A DNA stretch of 64,000 bases, taken from the IMG/VR virus record IMGVR_UViG_3300037067_002687, positions 6,734-70,733 of that record; one strand, given 5' to 3'. The translations under genes were made by a program, and so were the position numbers. This stretch comes from a virus (taxonomy: Duplodnaviria; Caudoviricetes). Position 1 is the stretch's first letter, and every line of letters starts with the position of its first letter. The notes under the pieces are model-generated. The model was not told the DNA's origin and did not search any database. It saw nothing but the letters and a program-made list of their open reading frames with translations. Shown one piece after another: positions 3,898 to 61,584 of this stretch.

Positions 3898-4066
3898 GAT
3901 TTTGGTAATCCTGGACGCATTGAGGCATGAGTACGGTTTCGGTTACAGTGAGGCCACGAAATGCGGTGTTAGCGTGGGACAACTGCAATCCAAGTTGTCT
4001 GTCTGGCTGGAAGTGCAATCCATGCGTGAATCTAAGGTTGCACCTAAAAAAGAAGGTGCGGCATGA
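3878..4066 (+). CDS. hypothetical protein (62 aa)
   Basis: AGGAGAAGGG upstream; ATGA overlap with the next gene. Confidence 0.55.
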   Translation: MNLTADEILVILDALRHEYGFGYSEATKCGVSVGQLQSKLSVWLEVQSMRESKVAPKKEGAA

Positions 4067-4323
4067 GCCAAGTGATGAAAGACGGAATGGAGGCGTCGTT
4101 TCTGAAGGCCCGCGTCTCGACATTGGGAAAATCGGCAGCAGGCAGGAATGCCTTGCGGTTTCTCTTGTCCATGACGTCGGCAGATACGGCCTTCCGTCTT
4201 GATTTCCATAACCACCTTGCCGTCATCGACCTAATGCAGGCATGTTTCGGTGGGCACGTTTCGGAAACGAGACACGCAATCTTGGACGAACTATTATGCG
4301 TCGAGGACGGTACGGACGCATAG
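4063..4323 (+). CDS. hypothetical protein (86 aa)
   Basis: ATGA-coupled start. Confidence 0.55.
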   Translation: MSQVMKDGMEASFLKARVSTLGKSAAGRNALRFLLSMTSADTAFRLDFHNHLAVIDLMQACFGGHVSETRHAILDELLCVEDGTDA

Positions 4324-4365
4324 GGCGCAATCCTGGGGCTGCCGTTTTGGCAGATTAGGCTGAAA

Positions 4366-4572
4366 ATGATGGAATTGAAGGTCGAATGTCGATTTTGCAA
4401 GTACGGCCAGACTTACGAGCCAAGAGACGCAGTCCATTGTCACCGCTTCCCACCAACGATACTAAAGGTCAATCCCTATGGTGGTACGCACACGGATTTC
4501 ACGGTTGTTAAGCCCTCTGATTGGTGCGGTGAGTTTGCCTTAGCGTCCGACAGGATTAAACCGAAACAATGA
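4366..4572 (+). CDS. small Cys-rich (Zn-binding?) phage protein
   Basis: CRFC...CHRFPP...DWCGEF pattern typical of small phage proteins. Confidence 0.6.
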   Translation: MMELKVECRFCKYGQTYEPRDAVHCHRFPPTILKVNPYGGTHTDFTVVKPSDWCGEFALASDRIKPKQ

Positions 4573-4574
4573 GC

Positions 4575-4900
4575 GTCATTCATACCCCATCGGCCCTCGT
4601 GGGGAACCGGCGGTAAGGGCGGGTCTAGTTTGTGGTGAACAGGGGACTCGTCCACCGTATCGGTATTGAGCGTATGGAACGGGGGTGGAAGGCGACCCGA
4701 GCCTGCGACCGGGAAGTACAACCGGACGGGTTTTTGAATCAGCGAGGAAGAAAGCCGACTCCATTAGCCCTACGGGCGAATCCTCGGGGGATGCGGCTTC
4801 AGGCAGGCCGATGGGACCGTCAACAAAAAGACGGAGAGCCTGCTGCGAGGAACGTGACCAAAACTAAGGAGCAACCGCAATCCCACATCACGGCAGCGGT
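4575..4900 (+). ncRNA. candidate structured RNA/leader
   Basis: No credible ORF; nested perfect helices TCCTCG/CGAGGA (4781/4846), GCAGGC/GCCTGC (4803/4838), CCGTC/GACGG (4817/4830), AAGCCG/CGGCTT (4752/4794); family not identified, strand assumed. Confidence 0.3.
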
Positions 4901-4953
4901 GACAGCCGGCAGAGATTCCGGCAATTTTGAATCTAGCATCATGCAGAGCATCC

Positions 4954-5175
4954 ATGAGCATCCATGACCAACTTGTCCCGCTGATTCGTAAGGCCGGCGT
5001 CCGGCACGTCGCGGCCAAGGCTGGCGTCTCGCTGGGCGCACTCTCGGAATGGCTAAACGAACTCAACCACCGACGGCTGGGAGATAAGCAGGTGGACGCC
5101 ATCGCCGACGTCCTAGCGGTTGACGTCCATTTCGTCCAGAGACGTGCCGCTAGGCCGGCGCGCACCTTGCCTTAA
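4954..5175 (+). CDS. XRE/Cro-like helix-turn-helix protein
   Basis: VRHVAAKAGVSLGALSEWLN...VDAIADVL is a typical HTH_XRE pattern; ~73 aa. Confidence 0.7.
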   Translation: MSIHDQLVPLIRKAGVRHVAAKAGVSLGALSEWLNELNHRRLGDKQVDAIADVLAVDVHFVQRRAARPARTLP

Positions 5176-5179
5176 GCCG

Positions 5180-5712
5180 CGCCTTATCGTAGCACACTCT
5201 ATCGTAGTGCTGCGCCCGTAGAGTTACGCCGCGCTGCTACCCATAGCGCTGCGCTACTCCCGAACGTGAGACTTGCTTCCCAGTGGAGGGACATAACGTC
5301 GTAATCCCTACTGCTGGGAAGCAACGTACTTTGCGCGCGTCAGAGTAGCGCGCGTCAGAGCGGAGCGCGGCGCGGCGTGGACGCGCGGCTCGTAGTAGCA
5401 TGGTCGCGCGGTGAAGCGTAGCGCCATGAGCGCATAAGAATCCTTGGTCCCGGCACATTGTTTTAACGTCGGAGCCAATGCCGTCCGGGTTCGCATCATA
5501 TTTCAGATGCACTTCCCCGCACGACCCAACGGCATCTATAGCCGTTTCCTTCGCCGACGAATCCCTCTTTGGGATTGACATGCTTTCGCGTCTACGGGAG
5601 CTTTATTCCCTCGGCACGGCACATGCTAGTTTAGCCGTTTTGCCCAGCCTGGGGCTATGTCTCGTTGGGGGTCCGCTGCTTATCCTGGACATGCCCAACG
5701 CAATCCTGACAG
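5180..5712 (-). ncRNA. candidate ~500-nt structured ncRNA
   Basis: Downstream of - strand promoter 5719-5747; ORFs lack an RBS; at least seven helices including 11-bp TTGCTTCCCAG/CTGGGAAGCAA (5273/5314) and 7-bp CGTTGGG/CCCAACG (5663/5694); 3' end unknown. Confidence 0.4.
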
Positions 5713-5720
5713 CTTGTCAG
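5706..5720. promoter_or_regulatory. operator copy 1 (CTGACAGCTTGTCAG)
   Basis: 15-bp near-palindrome overlapping the -10 of promoter 5719-5747. Confidence 0.8.
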
Positions 5721-5747
5721 TATACTACATTTCGAGGCAAAAGTCAA
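5719..5747 (-). promoter_or_regulatory. sigma70-type promoter (leftward)
   Basis: On - strand: TTGACT (5747-5742), 17 bp, TATACT (5724-5719). Confidence 0.75.
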
Positions 5748-5778
5748 GCCCAATAATTCCGGATTTTTGGTTTATCCC

Positions 5779-5807
5779 TTGACAGCCGACCTAATTGGTT
5801 GTAGAAT
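5779..5807 (+). promoter_or_regulatory. sigma70-type promoter (rightward)
   Basis: TTGACA (5779-5784), 17 bp, TAGAAT (5802-5807); back-to-back with the leftward promoter. Confidence 0.8.
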
Positions 5808-5892
5808 CGACAGTTAAGCATGGTTAGAAAAAGCCAAGAACCGCCAAAACTGAAGCCAAAGAAGCAAATTAAATCGAAGGACCAACCCCCCA

Positions 5893-6165
5893 ATGGCACG
5901 GCCTAAACTAGAAGGTGTTGTCGTCACGTATGAGGAAATCGCCTCCCTCTGCAAGTGTTCCATCAATCAGGTGCAGCAGGCCGCTACACGCTACAAGCAC
6001 GACCTGAGCGTCCAGCCGTGCGACATTTCGTCCTTGCGGTCGGTGTGCCTCTACATCGCCGCCAAGGCGGAGCCAGAGCTTCGGGAGAAGATAGCCGCCC
6101 TGTCGGTCCCGGTCATCTTCGACCGTGGCGTCTCGGGCCCTGGGAAGCTCCCAAGGACCTATTGA
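5893..6165 (+). CDS. putative HTH DNA-binding regulator (90 aa)
   Basis: VTYEEIASLCKCSINQVQQA is HTH-like; lone + strand gene with its own strong promoter; AAGGA RBS. Confidence 0.55.
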   Translation: MARPKLEGVVVTYEEIASLCKCSINQVQQAATRYKHDLSVQPCDISSLRSVCLYIAAKAEPELREKIAALSVPVIFDRGVSGPGKLPRTY

Positions 6166-6485
6166 ATCCAGAACTCAATCCCGAGGGGCTTGTCGGACGC
6201 CGGGGGATAATTCCTAGCGTCGTCGAACATCCTTTGAATCTCCCGGACAAGCTCCTCGCGCTTTGCTTCGCTGTAATTGGCGTAGTTTGCCGTGAAGTTT
6301 CTCCAGTTTGCGTATCCTTCCCCGTTATCCCTTGGGGTGCTGACGAAATTGAGACGAGAACGGCTTAGCTCCCTGGAGGGGTCTAGGCCCACCAGGGCGC
6401 CTCCGCTAGTCCTCGTCGTTGCGAGCCAAGCGGCCGGCACGGCCAAGGCCGACAACATCCGGCCGATGAATCCTCTTCGGTTCAT
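6159..6485 (-). CDS. twin-arginine signal peptide protein
   Basis: MNRRGFIGRMLSALAVPAAWLA (RRxFL-type Tat motif plus hydrophobic stretch); AAGGAG RBS. Confidence 0.7.
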   Translation of the reverse strand: MNRRGFIGRMLSALAVPAAWLATTRTSGGALVGLDPSRELSRSRLNFVSTPRDNGEGYANWRNFTANYANYSEAKREELVREIQRMFDDARNYPPASDKPLGIEFWIQ

Positions 6486-6756
6486 AGGGTCTCCTTTCGG
6501 GATATTCAAGTGACAGGGCGTCGGCTTCGCTGGCGATTTTCTCTAGGTGTGACTTGATGCCGGACGGAAGCCCGAGTATCGCATCGACAGCCGTCCCGAG
6601 ACGAGTTAGCGCCCAGACGGGCCAAGCAATCAACAACTCCGCAAAGTCGGATACCGATTCCGCCTCCTGTTCATGGATTCCCACCACAACCGTCTTCAGG
6701 CGATTTTTGACGCCGACTACGGGCGTGGATAGGGACACTTCCATTGCTTCCGACAT
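6406..6756 (-). CDS. hypothetical protein
   Basis: GGAGG RBS, downstream of promoter 6820-6848; 3' end overlaps the next gene. Confidence 0.55.
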   Translation of the reverse strand: MSEAMEVSLSTPVVGVKNRLKTVVVGIHEQEAESVSDFAELLIAWPVWALTRLGTAVDAILGLPSGIKSHLEKIASEADALSLEYPERRPYEPKRIHRPDVVGLGRAGRLARNDED

Positions 6757-6819
6757 GACAGACCTCCGTGCTGTTAGGGATTTTGATGAGTGGGCAATCA
6801 GGGATTTCCTGATGGCGGG

Positions 6820-6848
6820 ATTATAGCACTTCGCTCCTTTTCATGCAA
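6820..6848 (-). promoter_or_regulatory. sigma70-type extended -10 promoter
   Basis: On - strand: TTGCAT, 17 bp, TATAAT, preceded by TGC. Confidence 0.75.
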
Positions 6849-6851
6849 TAT

Positions 6852-7379
6852 CTATTTTCTCGTAATCGACCGGCGCAGACGAGCGTTGTCAAACAAGATG
6901 CACGACGCAATGTCTTTCGTGACGTCCTGGTTGCCTGCTACGTTAATCCATGGGCCGCGGCCGATGTTTTCTCTCCAGGGGACTAGCCTCTCGACGTAAA
7001 CCAGCCGGCGGAAGCCATGGCCAGAGAACCGACCGTCCGGGTACGGGACGTTGGTATTGAACCTCTCGCGGACGTCGTAATCCCCAACAAGGAAGACTGG
7101 CGAGGTTCCGTACAAAGCCGGGTGGATTCTCACAACAAACCGCTCGACGCCATGTTGGTGCATACTGACAAGAAGGGCGCAATCCTGCCGGTTCCAGGGG
7201 GAAAGCTCCAGGAACCTTGATTCGTAGTCTGGGTAGCATCGTTCAATGATGGAGTAGCGTTCAACACGCGCCGTCCAAGAGGGCTTTACGGCGATGGGTT
7301 CCGGCATCTTCTGGACCATCGGGATAAATGGGACCAAGCCGGCGATAGACGACTTTTTCAGGAAGTCCCTTCGGTTCAT
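6852..7379 (-). CDS. twin-arginine signal peptide protein
   Basis: MNRRDFLKKSSIAGLVPFIP (RRDFLK Tat consensus); AGGAGG RBS. Confidence 0.75.
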   Translation of the reverse strand: MNRRDFLKKSSIAGLVPFIPMVQKMPEPIAVKPSWTARVERYSIIERCYPDYESRFLELSPWNRQDCALLVSMHQHGVERFVVRIHPALYGTSPVFLVGDYDVRERFNTNVPYPDGRFSGHGFRRLVYVERLVPWRENIGRGPWINVAGNQDVTKDIASCILFDNARLRRSITRK

Positions 7380-7391
7380 AACTAATCCTCC

Positions 7392-7544
7392 TTAGAAAGT
7401 TTTTGCGACCTTCACCATACGAAACTCCGGACAGCCGCACGTCTCGCAGTGTCCGGGGTGCTTGTTTTGTTCCGGCGCTACCGTGTTGCATAGGTTGCAG
7501 ATAAACACGACCAGTTCTGGTTCTTTTTCGCTATTCTTCGCCAT
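7392..7544 (-). CDS. 50-aa zinc-ribbon protein
   Basis: Hand-translated MAKNSEKEPELVVFICNLCNTVAPEQNKHPGHCETCGCPEFRMVKVAKTF; two CxxC pairs; below ORF cutoff. Confidence 0.6.
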   Translation of the reverse strand: MAKNSEKEPELVVFICNLCNTVAPEQNKHPGHCETCGCPEFRMVKVAKTF

Positions 7545-7719
7545 CTATCGCGTCCTCAAGTTCCTGTATCCGCATATCCCATCCATCAACCTCCGGACTA
7601 AAGGCACCAACAAACGCCTTCATAACTTCAAGCTCTCCGAACGCGGATGTTTGTGCTAATTCTTCACGGACTAATTGAACGCACGCATCGGCCGCCTTTT
7701 GTGGGCTATCGTACTTCAT
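7531..7719 (-). CDS. hypothetical acidic protein (62 aa)
   Basis: AAGGAAG upstream of ATG 7719. Confidence 0.55.
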   Translation of the reverse strand: MKYDSPQKAADACVQLVREELAQTSAFGELEVMKAFVGAFSPEVDGWDMRIQELEDAIDGEE

Positions 7720-7737
7720 TCTTCTTCCTTTACTATA

Positions 7738-7858
7738 TGGCGGGGTGTGCGCACTCCCGGCAGTGGTATACCGCTTTTTCACTCAACTCCAAATAAGCCG
7801 GTTGCAAGCTATCGCGAATTGCTTGGCCGGTTCTTCTTTGTCAATCCGAGAACACCCC
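7738..7858 (-). ncRNA. candidate 121-nt RNA with tRNA-like acceptor stem and 3' CCA
   Basis: 5' GGGGTGT pairs with 3' ACACCCC, followed by G-CCA; inner helices TCTCGG/CCGGGA and CAAGC/GCTTG; no canonical T-arm. Confidence 0.35.
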
Positions 7859-8019
7859 ATATTTTGTAGCCGGGTAACTGACCCGCTCAACCCATAGTCG
7901 CATTACCCGGCGAGCCTCGTTACGAACGAGGTTATAGCAAAGAGGGGCGGGCGACGTCCACGTAGGGTTGGGACGTAAAGTCCACGGAGACGGGTAGGCT
8001 CGCCACGCCCCAGGATGAT

Positions 8020-9444
8020 TCATGCTGACAGAGCCTCCACGATTCCCTCTTCCTCGATTCCGATGCGGGGCATGGTGTAAGTCCGGTCGCAAACCAGGGA
8101 TAAATCCCCCGGTCGCTGGCCGATAATCAAGCCGATGCACCTTGCCTTTTCGGACTTTCTCCAGGAATTGAATTGTTGTACCATGTCGGACGGTAGGCTG
8201 CAAATGGCATCGGTCAGAAAAATGACGTCAGTCTTTCCTTTCGGGCATCCCAGGGATGGCCATATCTCGGGAAGCTCCTTAATCGGCACGTCCCGGCAAC
8301 TTCCACCGCTGTAGAAGTGTTCCAGCCATTCAATGAGTAGTTCCTGGTCCCAGGAGCCGGGTGCCATGACGGCCGTCGTCGGCGGGCATCCCCCGGAGTA
8401 GCCTATCAATGCCACCCAGCGGGATTGGTGTCGGGCAATCCATGACATGGCTAGGGCAAACGCCTTGGCATTGGCAATCGGCTCGCCTCCCATGGAGCCG
8501 GATTCGTCCACGACCACGACGATGGGACCTCTGGCCACCCGTTCGATGCCGTGGTACTCCCGGCACATGCAGGAGTTTTCGGCTATCCGGCGAAGCAGGT
8601 CGTCCTCTAGGTCCGGGTCCCCGAGAAGCGCCAGTTCGCTGGGAAGCAACCGGCCGGGGTCGCCGTCCAGGACCACGCCTACCATGTCGTCCATGCCGTG
8701 TAGGGTTTTCCTTCTCTGGAGAGCCGCACCGCATCGCCTGTAGCGTCCCGCTAGCTCCATGATACGTCGAAGCGTCTCATTGTTCCGGACGCTCTTAAAT
8801 AGCTCCTGGAGCTTCCCAGCGTTAAACGACTTGCCGGCCACGGCGCCATCCCCGCCCATTCCCAAGGCGCTCATGGCGTCTTCGGCGCTTTTGACACTTT
8901 CCTCGGCGTCTGTGATGGCATCCCCAGCGGCCGCCATGACTTCCAGGGGGTCCGGGTTAGACTTGCTCGTCGCCAGCTTCATCCAGCGGGACGAGAGGTC
9001 TACGGTCGCAATCCTTGCCGTCAACTCGTTCATTACCGTGTGCGTCCGTAGCGCCTGGAACTCGGGTGTCTCTAGGAGTTGCCGCACAAACTCGCCCCTT
9101 TCCTTACTGGCGCAGTTTTCGGCTAGCCTCGGGCTTGTCTGAAAGGCTGCGTTAAATAAGTCGGAAACAGTCAAGGACTCCGGGGACTCGGGAGACAGGG
9201 ACGGTTGGCCGGCGGCCACTATGAAAGTCAAGCCTTCCTGGTGAACGGTGGGAACCCCAAATAGCTCTCGCAGCCGTTCGGTCTCGTGCAGGACCTCATT
9301 TCCTTTACGGATTCCCCAGGAATCCAGGCGCAGGGCCGTGGGGCTTTCCGGCATGGAGGGGTCAACGAACTCCTCGGGCTCGACCTCTACGGCCGGTGGA
9401 GCTACGCCAAGCTCGTCAAGTAGTGAAGCAATCTCAGGGCTCAT
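8020..9444 (-). CDS. vWA (ViaA/YehP-like) domain protein
   Basis: C-terminal MIDAS VVVDESGSMGG...GGS...DVIFLTD; helical N-terminus; MoxR AAA in the same operon. Confidence 0.85.
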   Translation of the reverse strand: MSPEIASLLDELGVAPPAVEVEPEEFVDPSMPESPTALRLDSWGIRKGNEVLHETERLRELFGVPTVHQEGLTFIVAAGQPSLSPESPESLTVSDLFNAAFQTSPRLAENCASKERGEFVRQLLETPEFQALRTHTVMNELTARIATVDLSSRWMKLATSKSNPDPLEVMAAAGDAITDAEESVKSAEDAMSALGMGGDGAVAGKSFNAGKLQELFKSVRNNETLRRIMELAGRYRRCGAALQRRKTLHGMDDMVGVVLDGDPGRLLPSELALLGDPDLEDDLLRRIAENSCMCREYHGIERVARGPIVVVVDESGSMGGEPIANAKAFALAMSWIARHQSRWVALIGYSGGCPPTTAVMAPGSWDQELLIEWLEHFYSGGSCRDVPIKELPEIWPSLGCPKGKTDVIFLTDAICSLPSDMVQQFNSWRKSEKARCIGLIIGQRPGDLSLVCDRTYTMPRIGIEEEGIVEALSA

Positions 9445-18581: not shown

Positions 18582-18956
18582 TCATTGTGCGCTTTGCTCC
18601 AATACTTCGCGTTCGGCCGGCAAGTTGCGGTTCATCGCTGCCGATTTGGAGAACTTGCCTTTCTTGTAACGCTTGTGGAGCTTGTTGATGTTGGTCTCCA
18701 TAACCATCTCGAACGTGACGTCAAGCTCGTCGCAGAGGATGGCCATGTACCATAAGACATCGCCGATTTCCTCGACAAGATTCACCGCATCGAGCGGGGC
18801 CCCGTAGAACATCCGCTTCTTGGCGGCATCCAGCAACTCACCGGCCTCTGTGGCGATTCCGACGATGCCATGAAGCATCCGAGTGCTGATGGGTAATTGT
18901 TCGTAGGTCGTTCGCTCTAGTGCCGTGGCGGCCTTGATGTAGTCGTCGGTTGTCAT
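18582..18956 (-). CDS. MazG-like nucleotide pyrophosphohydrolase
   Basis: GIATEAGELLD..KK...EEIGDVLWY...NINKL.KRY; ATGA-coupled to the helicase. Confidence 0.88.
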   Translation of the reverse strand: MTTDDYIKAATALERTTYEQLPISTRMLHGIVGIATEAGELLDAAKKRMFYGAPLDAVNLVEEIGDVLWYMAILCDELDVTFEMVMETNINKLHKRYKKGKFSKSAAMNRNLPAEREVLEQSAQ

Positions 18957-20521
18957 GCTGCGTCCTTTTTGATTAAGTGTTCCTTGGGCACCGACGATAA
19001 TGGACGAAACCAGTCCGAAGCTGATTCCGGCATAAACGGGAGTGTCCTTGGAGGGTGGTAGTGATAGATATGGGCAAAGAATCCTTCGAGTGAATTGAAG
19101 CTCTTGTTCTTGGTTCGTGGCGAATGGCTCCAGGCAAAATACATATTCGTCCATAATTCGCTCGTGTCGTCCTTGCACTTCACGTACTTCGGTTTGATAA
19201 GATGCCCGTCCTTTACGACCATGCGACCGTCTTCCATGATGACGTTGCGTCTACTCTTCTCGCACTCGTACCCGCAATGCGGACACTTCGACCCTCGACT
19301 GCGTTCGCCCTCGCACTCCGGGCAGCGAATTGGTTCGACCGCTTTCCGGTCGCGGATGTCGTTGACGTGAATCTCGCTGATAGCATGTTCCGGCAGGGTC
19401 CACCAGGATTCCCAGGGACGGTCGTAGTTCGGTGAACCGTGCCTCAGATAATTCCCGCCATGGTCGGTACAGAGGACGCTATCAGGGGTCTCCGGAGAAT
19501 ATCGAAGAGCGCGTCCGATAGTCTGCAAAAACGACGCCAGAGAGCCGATAGGCGTTGCAAGGATGCAATGGTAGGTGAAGGGAACGTCCAGGCCCTCCCT
19601 ACACTTAAAGCGCGAGCTAATCCCCTTGATGTCATTTTTCCGATACCTTTCTAAAATCTCCGCCCATAGGGAGCGGGTCAGCGAAGCGCGCTTCCCGTCA
19701 ATAAACGCCTCGGTCGCATCGACGTGACACCATGGCACGCCGGCTTTAAGGAATTGCTCCGTCAACCAAACGGACTCCGGCTTCCCAGGGGCGTACATCA
19801 TCGTGGGTCGCGCGTCCGGGTTGTATTGCTTCCACTTGGCAATCACATTGCCCACGATGCTCTGGGTGTAGACCTGACGGGCCTTGCCGTCCACGACGTA
19901 TTCGCCCGTCCTGTTTCGTTGGACCTTACTCATGTCCGGCTGTTCAATGGACCGGAACACACACGGCACTAGCGACTTGCACTCCCGGTACTCCTGCATC
20001 GTGCCAGAAACGACAAGCTCGTCGGCCCAGGAGGAAAGACCGATGGGAGTTGCCGTCAAAAGGACAACCCGCGCGTGTCGTTTCTTTTTGAGGTCCTTGA
20101 CAATCCGGTGCATGATGGCCGTCTTCTGGATGTGGGCCTCGTCAATGACAATGAGGTCCGCATCGTGCAGTGTCCATATCTTCTTGTCGTAGACGCGCGA
20201 CTTCTCGGTATCCGCCGAACAGATTTGAAAGGGGGCGGTGGGGTCGTAGTAATCATCGTACTCCGCGGCCCGGATGGCGACCGGTAGCATCGCGGCACGG
20301 AAGCGCTCTAGCGTTTGCGGTATGAGCAACTTCCGATTGAGATAAAACGAACCCCGCCACCCCTTCGTGAGCGCCCAGTGAAACAATTCGGCCGCTTGCC
20401 GGGTTTTGCCGGAACCGGTTGGTCCGTAGAGGCAGACTGACTTCCCGCTCTCTAATAATTCCATCGTGCGGGATAAACCGCGACGCTGGGGCAGCCAAAG
20501 GTCTTCTGGGAACTCGTACAT
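18953..20521 (-). CDS. superfamily 2 (DEAH) DNA helicase with C-terminal zinc ribbon
   Basis: GPTGSGKT, IDEAH, LTATP, REGLD, QTIGRALR, DHGGN; CPEC...CPHC. Confidence 0.9.
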   Translation of the reverse strand: MYEFPEDLWLPQRRGLSRTMELLESGKSVCLYGPTGSGKTRQAAELFHWALTKGWRGSFYLNRKLLIPQTLERFRAAMLPVAIRAAEYDDYYDPTAPFQICSADTEKSRVYDKKIWTLHDADLIVIDEAHIQKTAIMHRIVKDLKKKRHARVVLLTATPIGLSSWADELVVSGTMQEYRECKSLVPCVFRSIEQPDMSKVQRNRTGEYVVDGKARQVYTQSIVGNVIAKWKQYNPDARPTMMYAPGKPESVWLTEQFLKAGVPWCHVDATEAFIDGKRASLTRSLWAEILERYRKNDIKGISSRFKCREGLDVPFTYHCILATPIGSLASFLQTIGRALRYSPETPDSVLCTDHGGNYLRHGSPNYDRPWESWWTLPEHAISEIHVNDIRDRKAVEPIRCPECEGERSRGSKCPHCGYECEKSRRNVIMEDGRMVVKDGHLIKPKYVKCKDDTSELWTNMYFAWSHSPRTKNKSFNSLEGFFAHIYHYHPPRTLPFMPESASDWFRPLSSVPKEHLIKKDAA

Positions 20522-26081: not shown

Positions 26082-26096
26082 CTGACAAGTTGTCAG
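26082..26096. promoter_or_regulatory. operator copy 4 (CTGACAAGTTGTCAG)
   Basis: Perfect 7-1-7 palindrome upstream of the recombination operon; no clear -35/-10 found. Confidence 0.75.
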
Positions 26097-44455: not shown

Positions 44456-46258
44456 TTACTGCCTCTGCTTCCCACGGGGGAGAACGTTCAATGTTATCTG
44501 TTCAAGGGCCCATCGGTGCGCGGACGACAATCGCAAGGACGCCGCGCCAGAGTCAACCCTGGGATGGAAGCTACGGGACCGGCCGCCCGGAATCACGCCG
44601 GTCGCCCTCGGCTTGACCGTGGATTCAATTTCGGAACAACTACGCGACGTGTAAAGCGCCCAATTCACCGGACCGGAACCCGCGGCGGTGGTGCCGATGA
44701 TTTCGGAAATGATTCCATGATTGTAGTCGTCGCCACCCGGTCGGAAGGGACCGAGGAAGACAAAGGAATCGAACGCAATACCATCGTCCTCTTCGGTGGC
44801 ATCGTCGTATTCGCGGATGTAACCGTCCGTGCATCCCAGGAAGACGCGGTTCTCTGAGGATGGGTCTGCCGCATAGGACAACATGGACGTTGGCTGGTGG
44901 GCATCCGCTAGGACGACCGGCCAGTACCCCTTCGTTTCTCCGGTAACTTGCACCCACCAATGGGTTCCAGTAGTACCATCCGAAGGTGTTATGTTGATGT
45001 GGACTCCGCCATGGTGCCCATCGTAGCACATGACCACTGTGTTTTCGGCGGTGTCGATGTCAATCAAGTCTTCTGGGATGGCATTCCTGGATATTGGCGT
45101 CGGGTAGGTTCCTGAGCCGGGGGAAATCGAATAAAGGCCGTCCCTGGCCAAGAAGAACAGCGAGGAATCCGGCAGGCGACACCAGGAAGAAGCACCGGCC
45201 ACGCCGACACCGCGCGACAGGCAATCAAGCTGGCCGCCGGACGCCGGGTCGCCACGGAAAATCCAAAGGCTGTTTTCGCATCCCAGTAGGAGATAGTCGT
45301 CCGAGTAGGGTATCAGGGCACGAATCGGCTCTCCGGGGGTTCCAGCGGATGAGGCGGTTCCAGCGACGGCCGTTGCTGGGTCGGTAACGTCAGCGCCGTA
45401 GTCCCAGTTGGTCGGGTCCCCTTGGCGACTCATGTACCAGATATGGTCCGGCCCGGCGAGGACAAGCCTATCACGGTAAAGCGCCATCAACGGGCATCCC
45501 AAGGGGGTATTGCCAGCCGTGGGAAGCAGCATGTCCATAATTCCGGTCTTTGGGTCGAGTACCACGGGGCATCGACGAATCTCATAAGCTACCGTGCTTG
45601 TTCCGTTCGGGCAATCGAGAGTGATAGACCCGACGCCGATGGCAATGATGGCGTAGGTCCCGGTCGTGGCAGAACCGTCCTTAATGACAATCTGACAGGC
45701 CGACGAATCCATGGAAATCCCGCGTGCCGAAAAGTCCGGTATCGACGCATCCGTCAAGACGCCGTCCGTGAGAGTACCCGACAGTCCGGACGCTTCAATC
45801 GGCCCGTGGTCCGCAATGTAGAGGTTCTGCGCCCGTTCGGCAACCTGAAGACTATCCACGCTCCCATTGAGCGTTGACGTACCTAGGGCTAACTCGGAAA
45901 TCGACTCGGTCGTTATCGCTTCACCTGCCTCCGTCAATAGAAACCCAACCCCGTAGGAGATTAGGTTTCCGTCCGAAACATGATGCACCAGACCGCCGGC
46001 CGACGCCACAAACACACGACTCAGGGCACCGGCCGCATCAACCACCGACACGCCGGCCATGAATTGAACGGGCTGGGCGTTTTCGGCGGCTTGGTCGTAA
46101 ACCTTGCGTAATCCGGGGCGGCTGCCACCACGCAGCCGACGGTCGAACGTGCAGGTAGCCCGCATGTTCTGGCACGAATACGTCGTGGTCTTGTCCTGCT
46201 TTGACAAGGCACTACGGCGATTCAGTCCTGCAACCGGAAAGTCTAGGCTTGAGGCCAT
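44456..46258 (-). CDS. tail nozzle/tubular protein B (P22 gp10/T7 gp12-like)
   Basis: 600 aa; YRDRLVL...IWYMSRQGDP.NW, YSDDYLLL, LFFLARDG beta-propeller pattern. Confidence 0.75.
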   Translation of the reverse strand: MASSLDFPVAGLNRRSALSKQDKTTTYSCQNMRATCTFDRRLRGGSRPGLRKVYDQAAENAQPVQFMAGVSVVDAAGALSRVFVASAGGLVHHVSDGNLISYGVGFLLTEAGEAITTESISELALGTSTLNGSVDSLQVAERAQNLYIADHGPIEASGLSGTLTDGVLTDASIPDFSARGISMDSSACQIVIKDGSATTGTYAIIAIGVGSITLDCPNGTSTVAYEIRRCPVVLDPKTGIMDMLLPTAGNTPLGCPLMALYRDRLVLAGPDHIWYMSRQGDPTNWDYGADVTDPATAVAGTASSAGTPGEPIRALIPYSDDYLLLGCENSLWIFRGDPASGGQLDCLSRGVGVAGASSWCRLPDSSLFFLARDGLYSISPGSGTYPTPISRNAIPEDLIDIDTAENTVVMCYDGHHGGVHINITPSDGTTGTHWWVQVTGETKGYWPVVLADAHQPTSMLSYAADPSSENRVFLGCTDGYIREYDDATEEDDGIAFDSFVFLGPFRPGGDDYNHGIISEIIGTTAAGSGPVNWALYTSRSCSEIESTVKPRATGVIPGGRSRSFHPRVDSGAASLRLSSAHRWALEQITLNVLPRGKQRQ

Positions 46259-46278
46259 TGGTTCACTTCAGGGGTGAT

Positions 46279-46326
46279 AAAAAGCGACACACCCCGGCGG
46301 ACGCAGTGCATAGGTCCGCCAGGGTG
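46279..46326 (-). terminator. probable intrinsic terminator
   Basis: - strand CACCCTGGCGGAC/GTCCGCCGGGGTG stem, then TGTCGCTTTTT. Confidence 0.6.
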
Positions 46327-46341
46327 CGCCAGGGATACGAA

Positions 46342-47538
46342 TTACGCCGCGTCGTCAAGACTGTTCGCGGCAAGGTACACCACGCGAACACGGACAAGTT
46401 GGGTGGCACCACCCGTGAACTTCTCCGTGGCAGCCGTGGAGCCGTCAGCCTTGACGGCATACAGGGCGAGAGTCTCGCCCGCATTCACCGCCCAGTCGGG
46501 AACGGTGTCAATCTTGGCGTTCTTGGTCAGAGCGCTCGTGACGCCATACTTGACCACCGAGCCGGTGATTCCAAGGCCAATCTTCGCGAGCAGGTCGTCT
46601 CCGGAGGCGTCACCAGTGATGGTTGCCTGGAGGTTTGCCTGAGCCGACAAGACAACAGCACCCGCGGGAACCGCAAGGGTCGTGTTGGTGGTGACGGCGT
46701 TCGTCAATTCGACAATCTCGTCGTAGACCTTGACCTCCAGGCCCTCAGTGGCTGTCTTGCCGAAGCGTGCGACAACGGCGGGGGTTGCGGCACCAGCTAT
46801 GGCCGTCAACGCCCCCTCGTATCCGACGTTCCGGAAATTGGAGACGTCCTTGCCTGCACTGGCGACAACCGCCTTGCTGGCAACGACCGTTCCGATAATG
46901 GCAGCATCGAGAACATTCGCCTCGGCCACCGAGATGGCCGCCGTGGACTGCAACAGATACGACGCAGCAATGCCAGGGTCGGCAAGATGGACTGCGGTGG
47001 CTTGGCCCATGGCGTCCGCATTCACCGTTACTGCCGTATTGCCGGTCTGGTCGGTGCAGGACAGTACCAGCTTTCCGCTGGCGGTCGTAGTGGGAAACAC
47101 CTGCACGGTGCCAGCGGTGGCATCCGCGCCGGCATTCACGGTCGTACCGGTCAACTCGGTCGCTGAGTACGAGGTTGCTGACACACCCGCAACGTTCGTC
47201 CCTTCGCCGGCCGCGACGCGCCAGCGATTGCCCGAGGCCGTCGGAATCGAGTGCAGCAGCACCCAGTCTCCCGCCGTGTTGAAGGTAATCGTCGTATTGC
47301 CGCCCTGGTCGTACCCGGAGGTGACAGTAAGGACGGTGTCGCCTCCATCGGTGTACATGGCGATGAGGCAGTTGAGGCCGGGACGCACCGGAACGGGCAG
47401 GACGCGAGTCTCAATGCCTGCGCTTACGAGAGGCACGACAATGAAGTCTCGGTCCACCGAAATCGACCCTGCATTGCCGGGGTCGTTTCCGACGTACTCG
47501 GACATGGACAAATCTTGCAAAAGCCTGTGGGCGCTCAT
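46342..47538 (-). CDS. virion structural protein (fibre/decoration-like)
   Basis: A/T/G/V-rich, ~398 aa from ATG 47538. Confidence 0.65.
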   Translation of the reverse strand: MSAHRLLQDLSMSEYVGNDPGNAGSISVDRDFIVVPLVSAGIETRVLPVPVRPGLNCLIAMYTDGGDTVLTVTSGYDQGGNTTITFNTAGDWVLLHSIPTASGNRWRVAAGEGTNVAGVSATSYSATELTGTTVNAGADATAGTVQVFPTTTASGKLVLSCTDQTGNTAVTVNADAMGQATAVHLADPGIAASYLLQSTAAISVAEANVLDAAIIGTVVASKAVVASAGKDVSNFRNVGYEGALTAIAGAATPAVVARFGKTATEGLEVKVYDEIVELTNAVTTNTTLAVPAGAVVLSAQANLQATITGDASGDDLLAKIGLGITGSVVKYGVTSALTKNAKIDTVPDWAVNAGETLALYAVKADGSTAATEKFTGGATQLVRVRVVYLAANSLDDAA

Positions 47539-54859: not shown

Positions 54860-55900
54860 TTAGGCGGAGGTGCTGCCAACCCAGCAATTACGCCGGTTGT
54901 AGCAGATGTAGTTCATCCAGTTGTCGATGTGGACTTCCCGGACGGTGTGCTGGCGGGCCCCAATCTTCGGCGGGTTACGCCGCATGGTGGCACCCTTCTT
55001 CACGAACGGACGGAATACCTTCCAGTTGATGCCGTACAGCGGGTTGGTCGAATCGTTCGCCGTGAGGTACGGCACCCAACGAATCGGCACGCCGCCGACG
55101 GTCACGCGGCCGATGAACCGGGCGACGTCGCTGCCAAGGTTGTCGTTGCGTGTCTCCGCAAGACGCTCCAGGGCTTCCTGCACCGCGTAGGTCGTGAAGA
55201 TGTTGTACTCCGCCTTGCCGAACCCAAGCTCCGGATGGGGCACGGGCGGCTTGAAGCTGGTGTAGGCCAGCGACTTTTTGATTTTCTTGACCAAGTCCTC
55301 GGCCGTGATGGATGTGTACTGGAACGCCCAGTTTTTCCATCGCGGGTACTCGGTCGCGTCGATGCCGGCGGCTCCGGCGGTAAACCCCGAAGGATTCCCA
55401 CCATTGAATCCGCCATCTGGGGTGGCGATACTCTTCTGCACCCAGAAGGGGATGCCCATGGGCCGCGTGTCGCTCGTGCCGGTGGGGGCCGTCCAGAGGT
55501 TCTCTTCGTTCAACTCAGCCAAGTCGCTCATGGCGGCGTGGTCGCGGAGAGTCAACTCCTTGATGATGGTCTCCCGGTCCGACTGGAACAGGTCCTCGTA
55601 GATGTCATACGAGAAGTTGGCGGTCTGCATCGCCCAAGGGACCTTCGCGGAAATCGTCAGGTCCTCGACCTTCGTGATGTCCTGCGCGTACATGCCAGTG
55701 TTGCGGGCCGTGCCGGTGTTCTTCGTCTTTACCTGGAACTTGATGGTCTCGCCGCCCTCTTCGACGACCTTCTTGTCGTCAATGAGGTCCGAAGAGATGT
55801 AGTCCTGGTATTCGAGCGCCAAATCCGTCCACTTCACCCGTTTCAGCAACGGAAGGGTCAGATTGACAAAATCATCAACAAGATTGGGTGTCAAAGCCAT
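54860..55900 (-). CDS. major capsid protein (HK97 fold)
   Basis: 346 aa after the scaffold; AAGGAGG RBS; GGETIKF, GIPFWV, Y.C.NRR pattern; followed by a terminator. Confidence 0.85.
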   Translation of the reverse strand: MALTPNLVDDFVNLTLPLLKRVKWTDLALEYQDYISSDLIDDKKVVEEGGETIKFQVKTKNTGTARNTGMYAQDITKVEDLTISAKVPWAMQTANFSYDIYEDLFQSDRETIIKELTLRDHAAMSDLAELNEENLWTAPTGTSDTRPMGIPFWVQKSIATPDGGFNGGNPSGFTAGAAGIDATEYPRWKNWAFQYTSITAEDLVKKIKKSLAYTSFKPPVPHPELGFGKAEYNIFTTYAVQEALERLAETRNDNLGSDVARFIGRVTVGGVPIRWVPYLTANDSTNPLYGINWKVFRPFVKKGATMRRNPPKIGARQHTVREVHIDNWMNYICYNRRNCWVGSTSA

Positions 55901-59646: not shown

Positions 59647-61584
59647 TCAATCTGTCCAGTCGGACTCTATGCCTTCCGCGCCTAACGTCTGAGCGATGTC
59701 CCATAGGGTTCTCTCATCCCATCCGTCTCCAGCCTTCTTGGCGTCGTCGTATTGTTTTTGCCTCCAGGCTAACGTGCCTTCCGGAGGGTCGGTTACATCA
59801 TTTCGCTTTTTGTCGTCGGCGTCTTTCCCCATTAAGGGTCTGTCTTTCATCGCTTGCAGACAGACGCACGCTGCAATGACCCTATCGCCGTGCGCCTTGC
59901 CTTTCGAGGAATCGTCTTTCGTGGTCGCCGCCGAAGAGTGAGCAATGAGACCATTCTGTCGGACGTACTGTGAGCATTCTTTCACGAGTGAGTCTGAGCG
60001 CACGGTAATCTCGTGAGACTTCACGGCAGACTGGAACTCAGAAAACATTTTCTCTTTCGTGGTTTCCGAAGTATGCCAACCAATTTCCTGTGTGCGCTTA
60101 CGACCTCGACGTGAGTACACTCCACGGAAGAAGATATTCACGTATCCGCGAGACTTGACTCTCGCCGTAAAGGCGGAACCGGGACCATTGATTTCCCAAG
60201 CCAAGTAAGCGTTATGGAACCACTTCGCCATCACAATTGCCATGTCAGCAAAGTCGTCGGGTAACATCGTGTTGGTTGCGAACGATGCCACCTCTTCCCC
60301 ACTACGCAGGTCGAATACTTCAATCGTCGAGTTGGACGACCAGGAACCACCCGAACCGGTCGCTACGTCACAGCCGATAACGTAGTGCCCCTTCTCTGGT
60401 TTGTTTCCTGGTCCTAGCGGTCGCCATATCTCGACGGGCCCACCGTTTTTGGTGCTGAAGTCGGGCTCTAGTGTCTCTTCGTTGTAGTCCATTTCGCCCA
60501 CAACGATGGGAGACATAACGTCCTTGCCAGCTTTCTCGAAAAACTCGTTGCCGAACACGCGGTAAGCAGAACCTCCATAGTCTCGGTCAAGCTCTTGGGC
60601 GATGGATTGCGTCGTAGCCCTGGGCCGGTCGCATTCATGGTCGTACCAGGGGGAGCGAGTAACGCCCTCAATCTTGAACCCCTTCTTCCGAAGCCGAGAA
60701 ATAAGGTCCTTGGATTTCTCCTCGTACTTCGCCGGCAGCGGGTTCTTGGGGTCAATGGACTTCATGTGACCATCGACAATGGTGTACAGCCCGCGGTTCT
60801 TGGTGGGGTTGTCTTTCCAGTCAATGGTGATGCGAATCATTGAACTCGGTTCGTGCATCAACTCGTAGTAAGCGCCCTCGGCACCCTTCGGAGTGGATAC
60901 CACAAGACGTGAGTTGGTGACGTGTTGCGTCGAGGCCATGGCTTCTTCATCGGGACCGCGCTTGAACTTGGCAAGCTCGTCCATGAGGAACCACTTCTTA
61001 CGGCCGCCGGACGCGACATCTCCCACTGCCGAGTATCCCGTAATCGTAGAGCCATTCGAGAGATTACGTAGCGTATGGTCGCCAAGGTTTCTACGGAAGT
61101 CGGGAACCATCCAGGCGGGCAGCTTAGTAAGCTCCCAGTCAATCTTCCAGAAGAGAGAATCCGGGTCCTCGGGGTTATCGACCGCTAACTCATTACGTGA
61201 GACAAGGCCAATGGCCGAAAGGGGATTGAACGTCCAGTCGTGAACGGCGAACAGGCAGGCAATCCAGGAGATGCCCTCACCGCGAGACTTCTCGGCGCCG
61301 ATGTCCTCGAACCCTAGATTCTTCGCAATCGTCTGGATGACGGGAATCTGATGCTCCCACGGAATAAAGGGCACGATGGGTGGAAGAGAGATGCCTCCCA
61401 CCTTGCGGGGCCTTGGTTCGTAGACCCAGCAGAAGGCAGTCATCCAGAAGAGAATATCCTCGCGACACGCCACTGTGAGCGCATTGCGAAACTCGACGTC
61501 CGTCAAGGCGCGTTCCCGCACCTCCAGACGATAGAGGAGATTCTTCTCAAGGTCCCGAGGGACCTGTTTGTAAAACTCGACCAT
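59647..61584 (-). CDS. terL: terminase large subunit
   Basis: Walker A KSRGEG.SW, Walker B FLMDE, VVSTP, nuclease IGCDVA...WEIN...HGDRV. Confidence 0.92.
   Translation of the reverse strand: MVEFYKQVPRDLEKNLLYRLEVRERALTDVEFRNALTVACREDILFWMTAFCWVYEPRPRKVGGISLPPIVPFIPWEHQIPVIQTIAKNLGFEDIGAEKSRGEGISWIACLFAVHDWTFNPLSAIGLVSRNELAVDNPEDPDSLFWKIDWELTKLPAWMVPDFRRNLGDHTLRNLSNGSTITGYSAVGDVASGGRKKWFLMDELAKFKRGPDEEAMASTQHVTNSRLVVSTPKGAEGAYYELMHEPSSMIRITIDWKDNPTKNRGLYTIVDGHMKSIDPKNPLPAKYEEKSKDLISRLRKKGFKIEGVTRSPWYDHECDRPRATTQSIAQELDRDYGGSAYRVFGNEFFEKAGKDVMSPIVVGEMDYNEETLEPDFSTKNGGPVEIWRPLGPGNKPEKGHYVIGCDVATGSGGSWSSNSTIEVFDLRSGEEVASFATNTMLPDDFADMAIVMAKWFHNAYLAWEINGPGSAFTARVKSRGYVNIFFRGVYSRRGRKRTQEIGWHTSETTKEKMFSEFQSAVKSHEITVRSDSLVKECSQYVRQNGLIAHSSAATTKDDSSKGKAHGDRVIAACVCLQAMKDRPLMGKDADDKKRNDVTDPPEGTLAWRQKQYDDAKKAGDGWDERTLWDIAQTLGAEGIESDWTD

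Follow-up and report, generated by a model that had tools for sequence, protein, structure and literature searches.

What does a well-built phage promoter transcribe when it points into half a kilobase of DNA that holds no gene? This question is raised by a leftward promoter, P_L, which a sequence-only reading had taken as the start of an undescribed large non-coding RNA. The DNA analysed, referred to below as the window, is a stretch of 64,000 nucleotides taken from an IMG/VR virus record (its bases 6734-70733), which is linear, 70.7 kb long and by estimate about 80% complete, and all coordinates are those of the window. The feature itself is real, as a regulon promoter, about 0.53 kb of gene-free DNA and the most stable hairpin of the genome are found together at the junction of two gene arms.

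The arm junction and its leftward promoter

The window carries the genes of a tailed phage, including those for the large terminase (59647-61584), the major head protein (54860-55900) and a helicase (18953-20521). The phage is present in public groundwater and landfill metagenome runs, and copies from groundwater (2022) and landfill (2018), recovered in several studies, are base-for-base identical, with no variant over positions 4000-8000. Three other assemblies (L003-L005) are 100% identical, which leaves them without comparative power, and four runs hold no variant. Homologues of a 474-aa protein (8020-9444), a vWA-domain protein by the JGI naming of those homologues, are carried by contigs that number in the hundreds, and many of these contigs are about 70 kb long. 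Other homologues lie in MAGs named Planctomycetaceae, Gemmataceae, Pirellulales and Isosphaera, which makes a planctomycete the probable host. More than 300 such homologues share 40-54% identity and always lie 3' of genes for a bpMoxR ATPase and a DUF6744 protein, with a small tyrosine recombinase before them.

From the start of the record to position 5175 every gene is on the + strand, and from 6159 to about 62.6 kb every gene is on the - strand. The region therefore sits where two gene arms converge. The cumulative GC skew has its maximum near 5 kb, where both GC and AT skew flip. The junction is broken only by one small + strand gene and a back-to-back pair of promoters. The features that delimit the interval (5176-5892) are as follows.

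4927..5175, + strand: last gene of the early arm, likely start 4954, encoding a small HTH protein (HTH_3, E 0.004) and convergent with P_L
5237..5581, - strand: longest open reading frame (ORF) of the interval, 114 codons, judged spurious
5706-5720, both strands: 15-bp operator palindrome CTGACAGCTTGTCAG, which has two bases in common with the -10 box of P_L and spans the predicted start
5747..5719, - strand: leftward promoter P_L, TTGACT-17-TATACT, found by promoter scan with 10 of 12 matches
5779..5807, + strand: divergent rightward promoter of the 90-aa gene, TTGACA-17-TAGAAT, found by promoter scan with 11 of 12 matches
5893..6165, + strand: lone 90-aa gene, divergent from P_L, with weak HTH-type Pfam matches

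At the 5' end of the HTH gene a perfect tandem GAGCATCCAT (4946-4967; 2.2 copies) gives rise to two in-frame ATG starts, and the public gene call begins at the ATG at 4954. About 7 nt downstream of the start predicted for the rightward promoter begins a very basic upstream ORF of 28 codons (MVRKSQEPPKLKPKKQIKSKDQPPNGTA; 5821-5907), which runs into the 5' end of the 90-aa gene.

The scan, which returned three sites in 3 kb where 1.2 were expected, recovered P_L just as the sequence-only reading had described it, and the operator that was said to lie on its -10 box does so. It was also proposed that P_L belongs to an operator regulon. The pattern CTGACAnnnTGTCAG, with at most two mismatches, was found at 11 sites in the window compared with 2.2 expected, a count reached in none of 100 shuffles, and the promoters at 5706, 16500, 22824 and 43343 are all built as TTGnnn-17-GTAtACTGACAA. 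As four sites in the window share this entire build, P_L is a credible member of the promoter class. The three sister promoters lead into protein genes, one of them by way of a leader of about 130 nt, and the leaders of the four like promoters did not align with each other outside the operator. P_L, on the - strand, opposes the + strand arm that ends at 5175, and its transcription would converge on the HTH gene, as had been suggested.

Further CTGACAnnnTGTCAG palindromes were seen in the window at 26082, 26531, 29436, 57101 and 62658. The palindrome is also found in the related phages L018, L021, L024 and L025, at 5-10 copies per locus of 15-21 kb, and is conserved across a whole group of Planctomycetota phages and prophages of about 70 kb. 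This conserved operator system is probably a more tractable discovery than the interval itself.

Coding potential and folding of the interval

The sequence-only reading held that P_L points at no credible ORF, and that codon periodicity in ORF 5237-5581 would count against a non-coding role. Codon use, ribosome-binding sites, homology, fold prediction and public gene calls were all negative for 5176-5892. In ORF 5237-5581 the GC content at codon positions 1, 2 and 3 is flat (0.61/0.57/0.58) and the codon score is -0.114 per codon, which is the median value for 99 shadow ORFs nested in long genes and is matched or undercut by just 1.3% of real 114-codon gene pieces. The ORF thus looks non-coding. 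No frame of 5140-5860 shows a sustained positive codon score, which both flanking genes do show, and no start codon of the interval has a Shine-Dalgarno sequence with a useful ORF behind it, that of ORF 5237-5581 included. Pfam and PHROG gave no match for any ORF in 5176-5892. A HMMER search with ORF 5237-5581 against 1.84 billion representatives returned repeat-inflated chance matches and junk only, and did not return the ORF itself. One match, to a Bacteroidota T9SS repeat protein of 1299 aa (E 1.9e-18), was rejected as the inflation by repeats of a likeness of about 30 bits over 43 residues. AlphaFold2 gave the ORF a mean pLDDT of 43, and its Atlas recognition of 1002 is a value that shuffled sequences also reach. 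Public gene calls leave the gap empty on three other contigs that cover it wholly or for the most part, and the only call reaching into it is a truncated ORF at the edge of a short contig, read in the same frame as a 92-codon + strand ORF (5478-5756). Reading TAG or TGA as sense opened nothing convincing.

It might nonetheless be proposed that P_L serves an orphan small protein, encoded by ORF 5237-5581 or by just its first 60 or so codons and translated after a 131-nt leader. Such a protein would be in keeping with the three sister promoters, all of which drive protein genes and one of which has a leader of about the same length; moreover, the N-terminal half of the ORF scores weakly positive (about 0.1 per codon, near the score of the HTH gene), and low scores are also seen for some of the phage's small early genes. 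However, the whole-ORF codon score, the flat GC, the missing ribosome-binding site, the low pLDDT and the empty homology search all argue against it, and we estimate that about 0.7 ORFs of such length would be expected by chance in GC-rich sequence of this size. We therefore consider a small protein improbable. On the reading that we prefer, 5176-5892 has no coding function at all and occupies the meeting point of the gene arms.

Like the promoter, the helices listed in the sequence-only reading were all found where it had placed them, and most are part of the minimum free energy (MFE) fold. Of its claim that three hairpins share a CGGC/GCCG core, the hairpin positions held, while the shared cores reduce to two copies of AACGGCTA. 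The structural features are listed below.

5663-5669/5694-5700, with inner pairs 5671-5674/5687-5690, - strand: first helix of the predicted P_L transcript, read in the sequence
5616/5634, 5528/5541, 5560/5571, 5493/5506 and 5451/5479, - strand: further short helices, read in the sequence
5391..5712, - strand: 5' two-thirds of the predicted P_L transcript, short local hairpins of moderate structure
about 5216..5388, both strands: long imperfect palindrome or hairpin of about 160 nt and about 63 bp, with a perfect 11-bp stem (5273-5283/5314-5324) as its core
5333..5366, both strands: tandem GCGCGCGTCAGAG repeat, a CGCG-rich patch inside the right arm of the palindrome
5582..5610, + strand: terminator-like hairpin followed by TTTATT, where the early-arm transcript might end, within the P_L unit (consensus match only)
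5079..5064, - strand: weak terminator-like site in the HTH gene, where the P_L transcript might end (consensus match only)

Comparison of the MFE with shuffled sequences, a check that the sequence-only reading had proposed, confirmed above-chance folding (z -4.5). For 5180-5712, the 533 nt from the predicted start, the MFE is -230.0 kcal/mol on the - strand (z -4.49) and -229.1 kcal/mol on the + strand (z -4.36), and on neither strand was any of 100 shuffles as good. After correction for GC the region ranks second of 528 genome windows of 533 nt each. It is outranked by a coding region (45936-46468), and because similar z-scores are thus reached inside coding regions, structure alone proves no function.

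Most of the folding signal sits in the long palindrome, which is separated from the stop codon of the HTH gene, the last of the early arm, by about 40 nt. Its + strand folds at -93.7 kcal/mol (z -5.05) and its - strand at -84.8 kcal/mol (z -3.61), a difference of about 9 kcal/mol in favour of the strand opposite to the P_L transcript, and it is the most stable + strand window of 170 nt in the genome (first of 1765). The palindrome has nine G-U pairs on the + strand and six on the - strand, counts that do not decide the strand. The region 5391-5712 is less structured, with the - strand reaching z -2.71 and the + strand z -2.32. No U-tract follows the long palindrome on either strand, so that it is not a canonical intrinsic terminator, a GC-rich stem with a U-tract. 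Terminator-like consensus matches were found seven times, compared with 2.7 expected. In the CGCG-rich patch, taken at 5225-5430, the word CGCGC is found 14 times where the rest of the genome would predict 1.6, which suggests that the genome otherwise avoids this word or that the patch is foreign.

These data bear directly on the proposal that P_L makes a free-standing, trans-acting structured RNA of about 0.5 kb within the operator regulon. In its favour, the promoter is dedicated and regulated, no ORF lies ahead of it, and the folding z-score ranks near the top of the genome. The strand-specific structure expected of such an RNA was not found, as the two strands fold equally well overall and the strongest helix prefers the opposite strand. 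Furthermore, the helices are for the most part perfect Watson-Crick palindromes, equally suited to an origin at the level of DNA, and no terminator marks the 3' end. A sponge for CsrA, of the CsrB/RsmY type, was also tried and set aside, being unlikely because GGA motifs are not enriched (13 against about 12 expected); the record has no CsrA gene.

Known RNA families and related phages

The sequence-only reading had suggested a search of Rfam. In Rfam 15 no match was found at the gathering score in the whole window, and over 4700-6300 only chance matches were seen (E at least 1.6). Because of this blank, an RNA made here would be undescribed; GOLLD and ROOL, for comparison, are both Rfam families. 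Covariation is the defining test of RNAs of the GOLLD and ROOL type. No relative that shares the sequence of the interval was found in IMG/VR, JGI metagenomes or INPHARED, whether by blastn against INPHARED phages, through the neighbouring HTH, 90-aa, 175-aa and 474-aa vWA genes as queries in IMG/VR, or with two-sequence alignments as queries against IMG/VR and JGI metagenomes. Word-indexed protein searches with the 90-aa and HTH proteins returned self matches only, relatives of the terminase are short contigs that end before this locus, and nhmmer found no likeness between the interval and the related loci. The sole public run labelled RNA covers just 7268-7667 and is probably DNA. The lack of any homologue, with other copies being 100% identical, also weighs against a trans-acting RNA.

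Contigs fetched through vWA homologues of 45-48% identity allowed a family map to be drawn, in which the replication and MoxR-vWA operon is followed by an integrase on the opposite strand, a gap of about 520 nt and the end of the early arm. The early arm of these relatives often carries a CsrA gene, and the arm junctions of this phage group are highly variable. The gaps of L024 (14158-14671) and L021 (12723-13246) adjoin the integrase and hold 3' fragments of tRNAs and arm repeats; that of L025 (13981-14529) also adjoins the integrase and carries GGTAGTAC repeats. The arm repeats of the three gaps are 7-9 nt long, with GGTGTTCG present about ten times, GGTGTAG three times and GGTAGTAC three times, and the L021 gap has a perfect inverted repeat of 15 bp and a z-score, taken whole, of -5.7. 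By these sequence features the integrase-side gaps of L021, L024 and L025 are identified as attP sites.

In three relatives the gap of about 520 nt found at this arm junction is attP, and the interval might itself be a DNA-level site. It could be an attP-like or recombinase site, still working or left as a relic, or a different array of protein-binding repeats. In agreement with this, the structure is equal on both strands. GTAG/CTAC is found 11 times in the interval, at 3.3-fold the density of the genome, and GCTAC six times (0.9 expected); these words are reminiscent of the arm repeats in the attP sites of the relatives. GTAGC-type words are enriched three- to sixfold overall, but they are short and of mixed orientation. 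Unlike its relatives, the record has no large integrase, and the excisionase-like HTH_17 gene that accompanies the integrase there was likewise missing from this record of about 80% completeness. Its sole PF00589 match is the small recombinase at about 13.6-14.1 kb, some 8 kb away. No tRNA was found, and the interval holds no tRNA fragment. In 401 genomes of Planctomycetota, the probable host phylum, no attB-like match to the interval was seen beyond GC-rich 45-mers. A partition site or plasmid-prophage centromere was rejected, as neither ParA nor ParB is encoded in the record, which likewise counts against a DNA-level site.

Contigs of three runs from different studies match the interval at 5485-5518 only, and in one run at 5449-5479 only. 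These matches span 31-34 bases at 80% likeness or more and have unlike flanks on both sides; in the case of 5485-5518 the flanks are the same in all three runs, and that flank is absent from genome_contigs and metagenome_contigs. While such sharing of short segments could speak for a DNA-level site, the matches may be due to chance at 80% likeness. Taken with the synteny of L018, described below, by which the interval is not the attP interval, a DNA-level site appears to us a rather remote prospect.

L018 is the only relative with homologues of both flanking genes, namely a 65-aa protein 48% identical to the HTH protein and an 85-aa protein 37% identical to the 90-aa protein. Between the two, six genes are called in L018 and none in our phage; they include a gene for a 194-aa protein, several small genes and CsrA, whereas no CsrA gene was found in our record (about 80% complete). 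A promoter region divergent from the 90-aa homologue leads to the 194-aa protein, which has two QSregVF_b-like motifs, and after it comes a gene-poor zone of 567 nt (19220-19786). This zone folds with a z-score of -4.55 in the direction that corresponds to P_L and of -3.43 on the other strand, is 18.6 kcal/mol more stable in the P_L-like direction, and has a centroid close to the MFE structure. At its far edge lie a canonical early-arm terminator and an extended operator palindrome of 21 bp. The zone shows no sequence likeness to our interval except for the operator, has no match in Rfam, and its variants differ at three sites only.

Six genes in L018 against none here, together with the variable arm junctions of the group and the orphan sequence of the interval, whose composition is odd for the genome (as with CGCGC), raise the possibility of evolutionary debris, in which the junction once carried an accessory module, since replaced or lost, and the surviving old promoter now faces sequence with no selected function. 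However, tblastn with 31 proteins of L018, L020 and L021, at E up to 1, detected no remnant inside 5176-5892 in any frame. The promoter and operator are intact and fit the class consensus, folding is above chance, and the sequence is 100% identical in assemblies of several studies. We regard debris as unlikely, though it deserves some weight.

For a trans-acting RNA the L018 zone cuts both ways. An analogous structured, gene-poor zone in the same direction, more stable in that direction, slightly raises our estimate for such an RNA, because an unrelated and equally structured zone is found at the same place; apart from the operator, however, the two differ in sequence. That a discrete structured RNA of about 0.5 kb is the working product of the regulon, with the L018 zone as its positional counterpart despite the lack of sequence likeness, seems to us fairly unlikely, and the same holds for the free-standing trans-acting RNA. 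Of the claim of an undescribed large RNA in the regulon, the regulon promoter, the absence of an ORF, the above-chance fold and the Rfam blank stood; the structure did not favour the proposed strand.

A proposed transcript acting in cis and its likeness to known systems

The reading that we tentatively prefer, while giving it somewhat less than even weight, is that P_L makes a non-coding transcript under regulation and that this transcript works in cis, either as antisense RNA or as a barrier to the opposing transcription. A non-coding buffer or antisense zone at the arm junction is more likely than a new large RNA gene. Under the proposed mechanism, de-repression of the regulon would allow the operator-gated, sigma-70-type P_L to fire leftward into the non-coding zone. 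The RNA, of about 330-650 nt, would code for nothing and act in cis, running head-on to the end of the early arm and being complementary to its 3' end or 3' UTR. Transcription from P_L would meet the palindrome hairpin of about 160 nt, which may block polymerases from both sides or be a site of processing. Expression of the distal early genes could then be lowered by antisense pairing, by collision of the two transcriptions or by cleavage of the hairpin. The firing of P_L, the ends of its RNA and the lowered distal early expression are steps that we infer. Because the terminator-like sites at 5582-5610 (+) and 5079-5064 (-) face each other, the early-arm and P_L transcripts would overlap by about 550 nt.

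Several observations favour a cis-acting transcript. The promoter and operator are real and belong to the regulon, no coding signal lies ahead, and the arms converge. The strongest local + strand structure of the genome lies about 40 nt past the stop of the early arm and folds on both strands. In L018 the same place is occupied by the structured gene-poor zone of 567 nt with a canonical early-arm terminator at its edge, and in L021, L024 and L025 by other non-coding elements, the attP sites. On the other hand, the long hairpin has no U-tract, the terminator-like sites are consensus matches only (seven found, 2.7 expected), and comparable z-scores occur in coding regions. Furthermore, a cis-antisense role would need overlap alone, which leaves the many small hairpins in the 5' two-thirds of the transcript unaccounted for.

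The present main value of the locus is a clean negative, a well-built regulon promoter with 0.5 kb of gene-free DNA ahead of it. Should P_L indeed make an RNA that works against the early arm, phages of Planctomycetota, whose phage biology is, to our knowledge, almost unstudied, would offer a clear case of regulated convergent transcription. A stable structured RNA, were P_L to make one instead, would join the large phage non-coding RNAs from outside the few known classes, and if that reading is true, as one of a fast-evolving class invisible to discovery by sequence.

GOLLD and ROOL are large ornate RNAs that are frequent in phages and prophages (PMC5737381; PMC12286853). The P_L unit resembles them in its size class of about 0.5 kb, its phage setting, its lack of an ORF and its many helices, but differs in having no Rfam 15 match, no homologues, no neighbouring tRNAs and no strand preference in its structure. 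The attP regions of L021, L024 and L025 share its map position, its length of about 520 nt and its short repeated words, and that of L021 also shares a long inverted repeat with strong folding (z -5.7); in contrast to them, the interval has no adjacent integrase, no tRNA-derived core and no sequence likeness.

In phage lambda, the sib/tI retroregulation hairpin is an RNase III site past the last gene. Like sib/tI, the long palindrome is a large hairpin just 3' of the last gene of an arm, at the place where relatives have int and attP, although it has about 63 pairs and stands without an int gene, and RNase III cleavage or dependence on antitermination would be conjectural here.

Convergent, face-to-face transcription and cis-antisense RNAs are well established in phage switches, as in the pR-pL interference of coliphages 186 and P2, the OOP RNA of lambda and the sar RNA of P22. 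The P_L unit, at about 0.5 kb, is far longer than OOP and sar (60-80 nt), and P_L is placed at the distal end of the early arm and not at the switch, with overlap and effect inferred in our case. Nonetheless, the proposed cis-acting transcript resembles these systems in its parts, as a regulated promoter opposes an oncoming operon and would give rise to a non-coding RNA complementary to the opposing 3' part.
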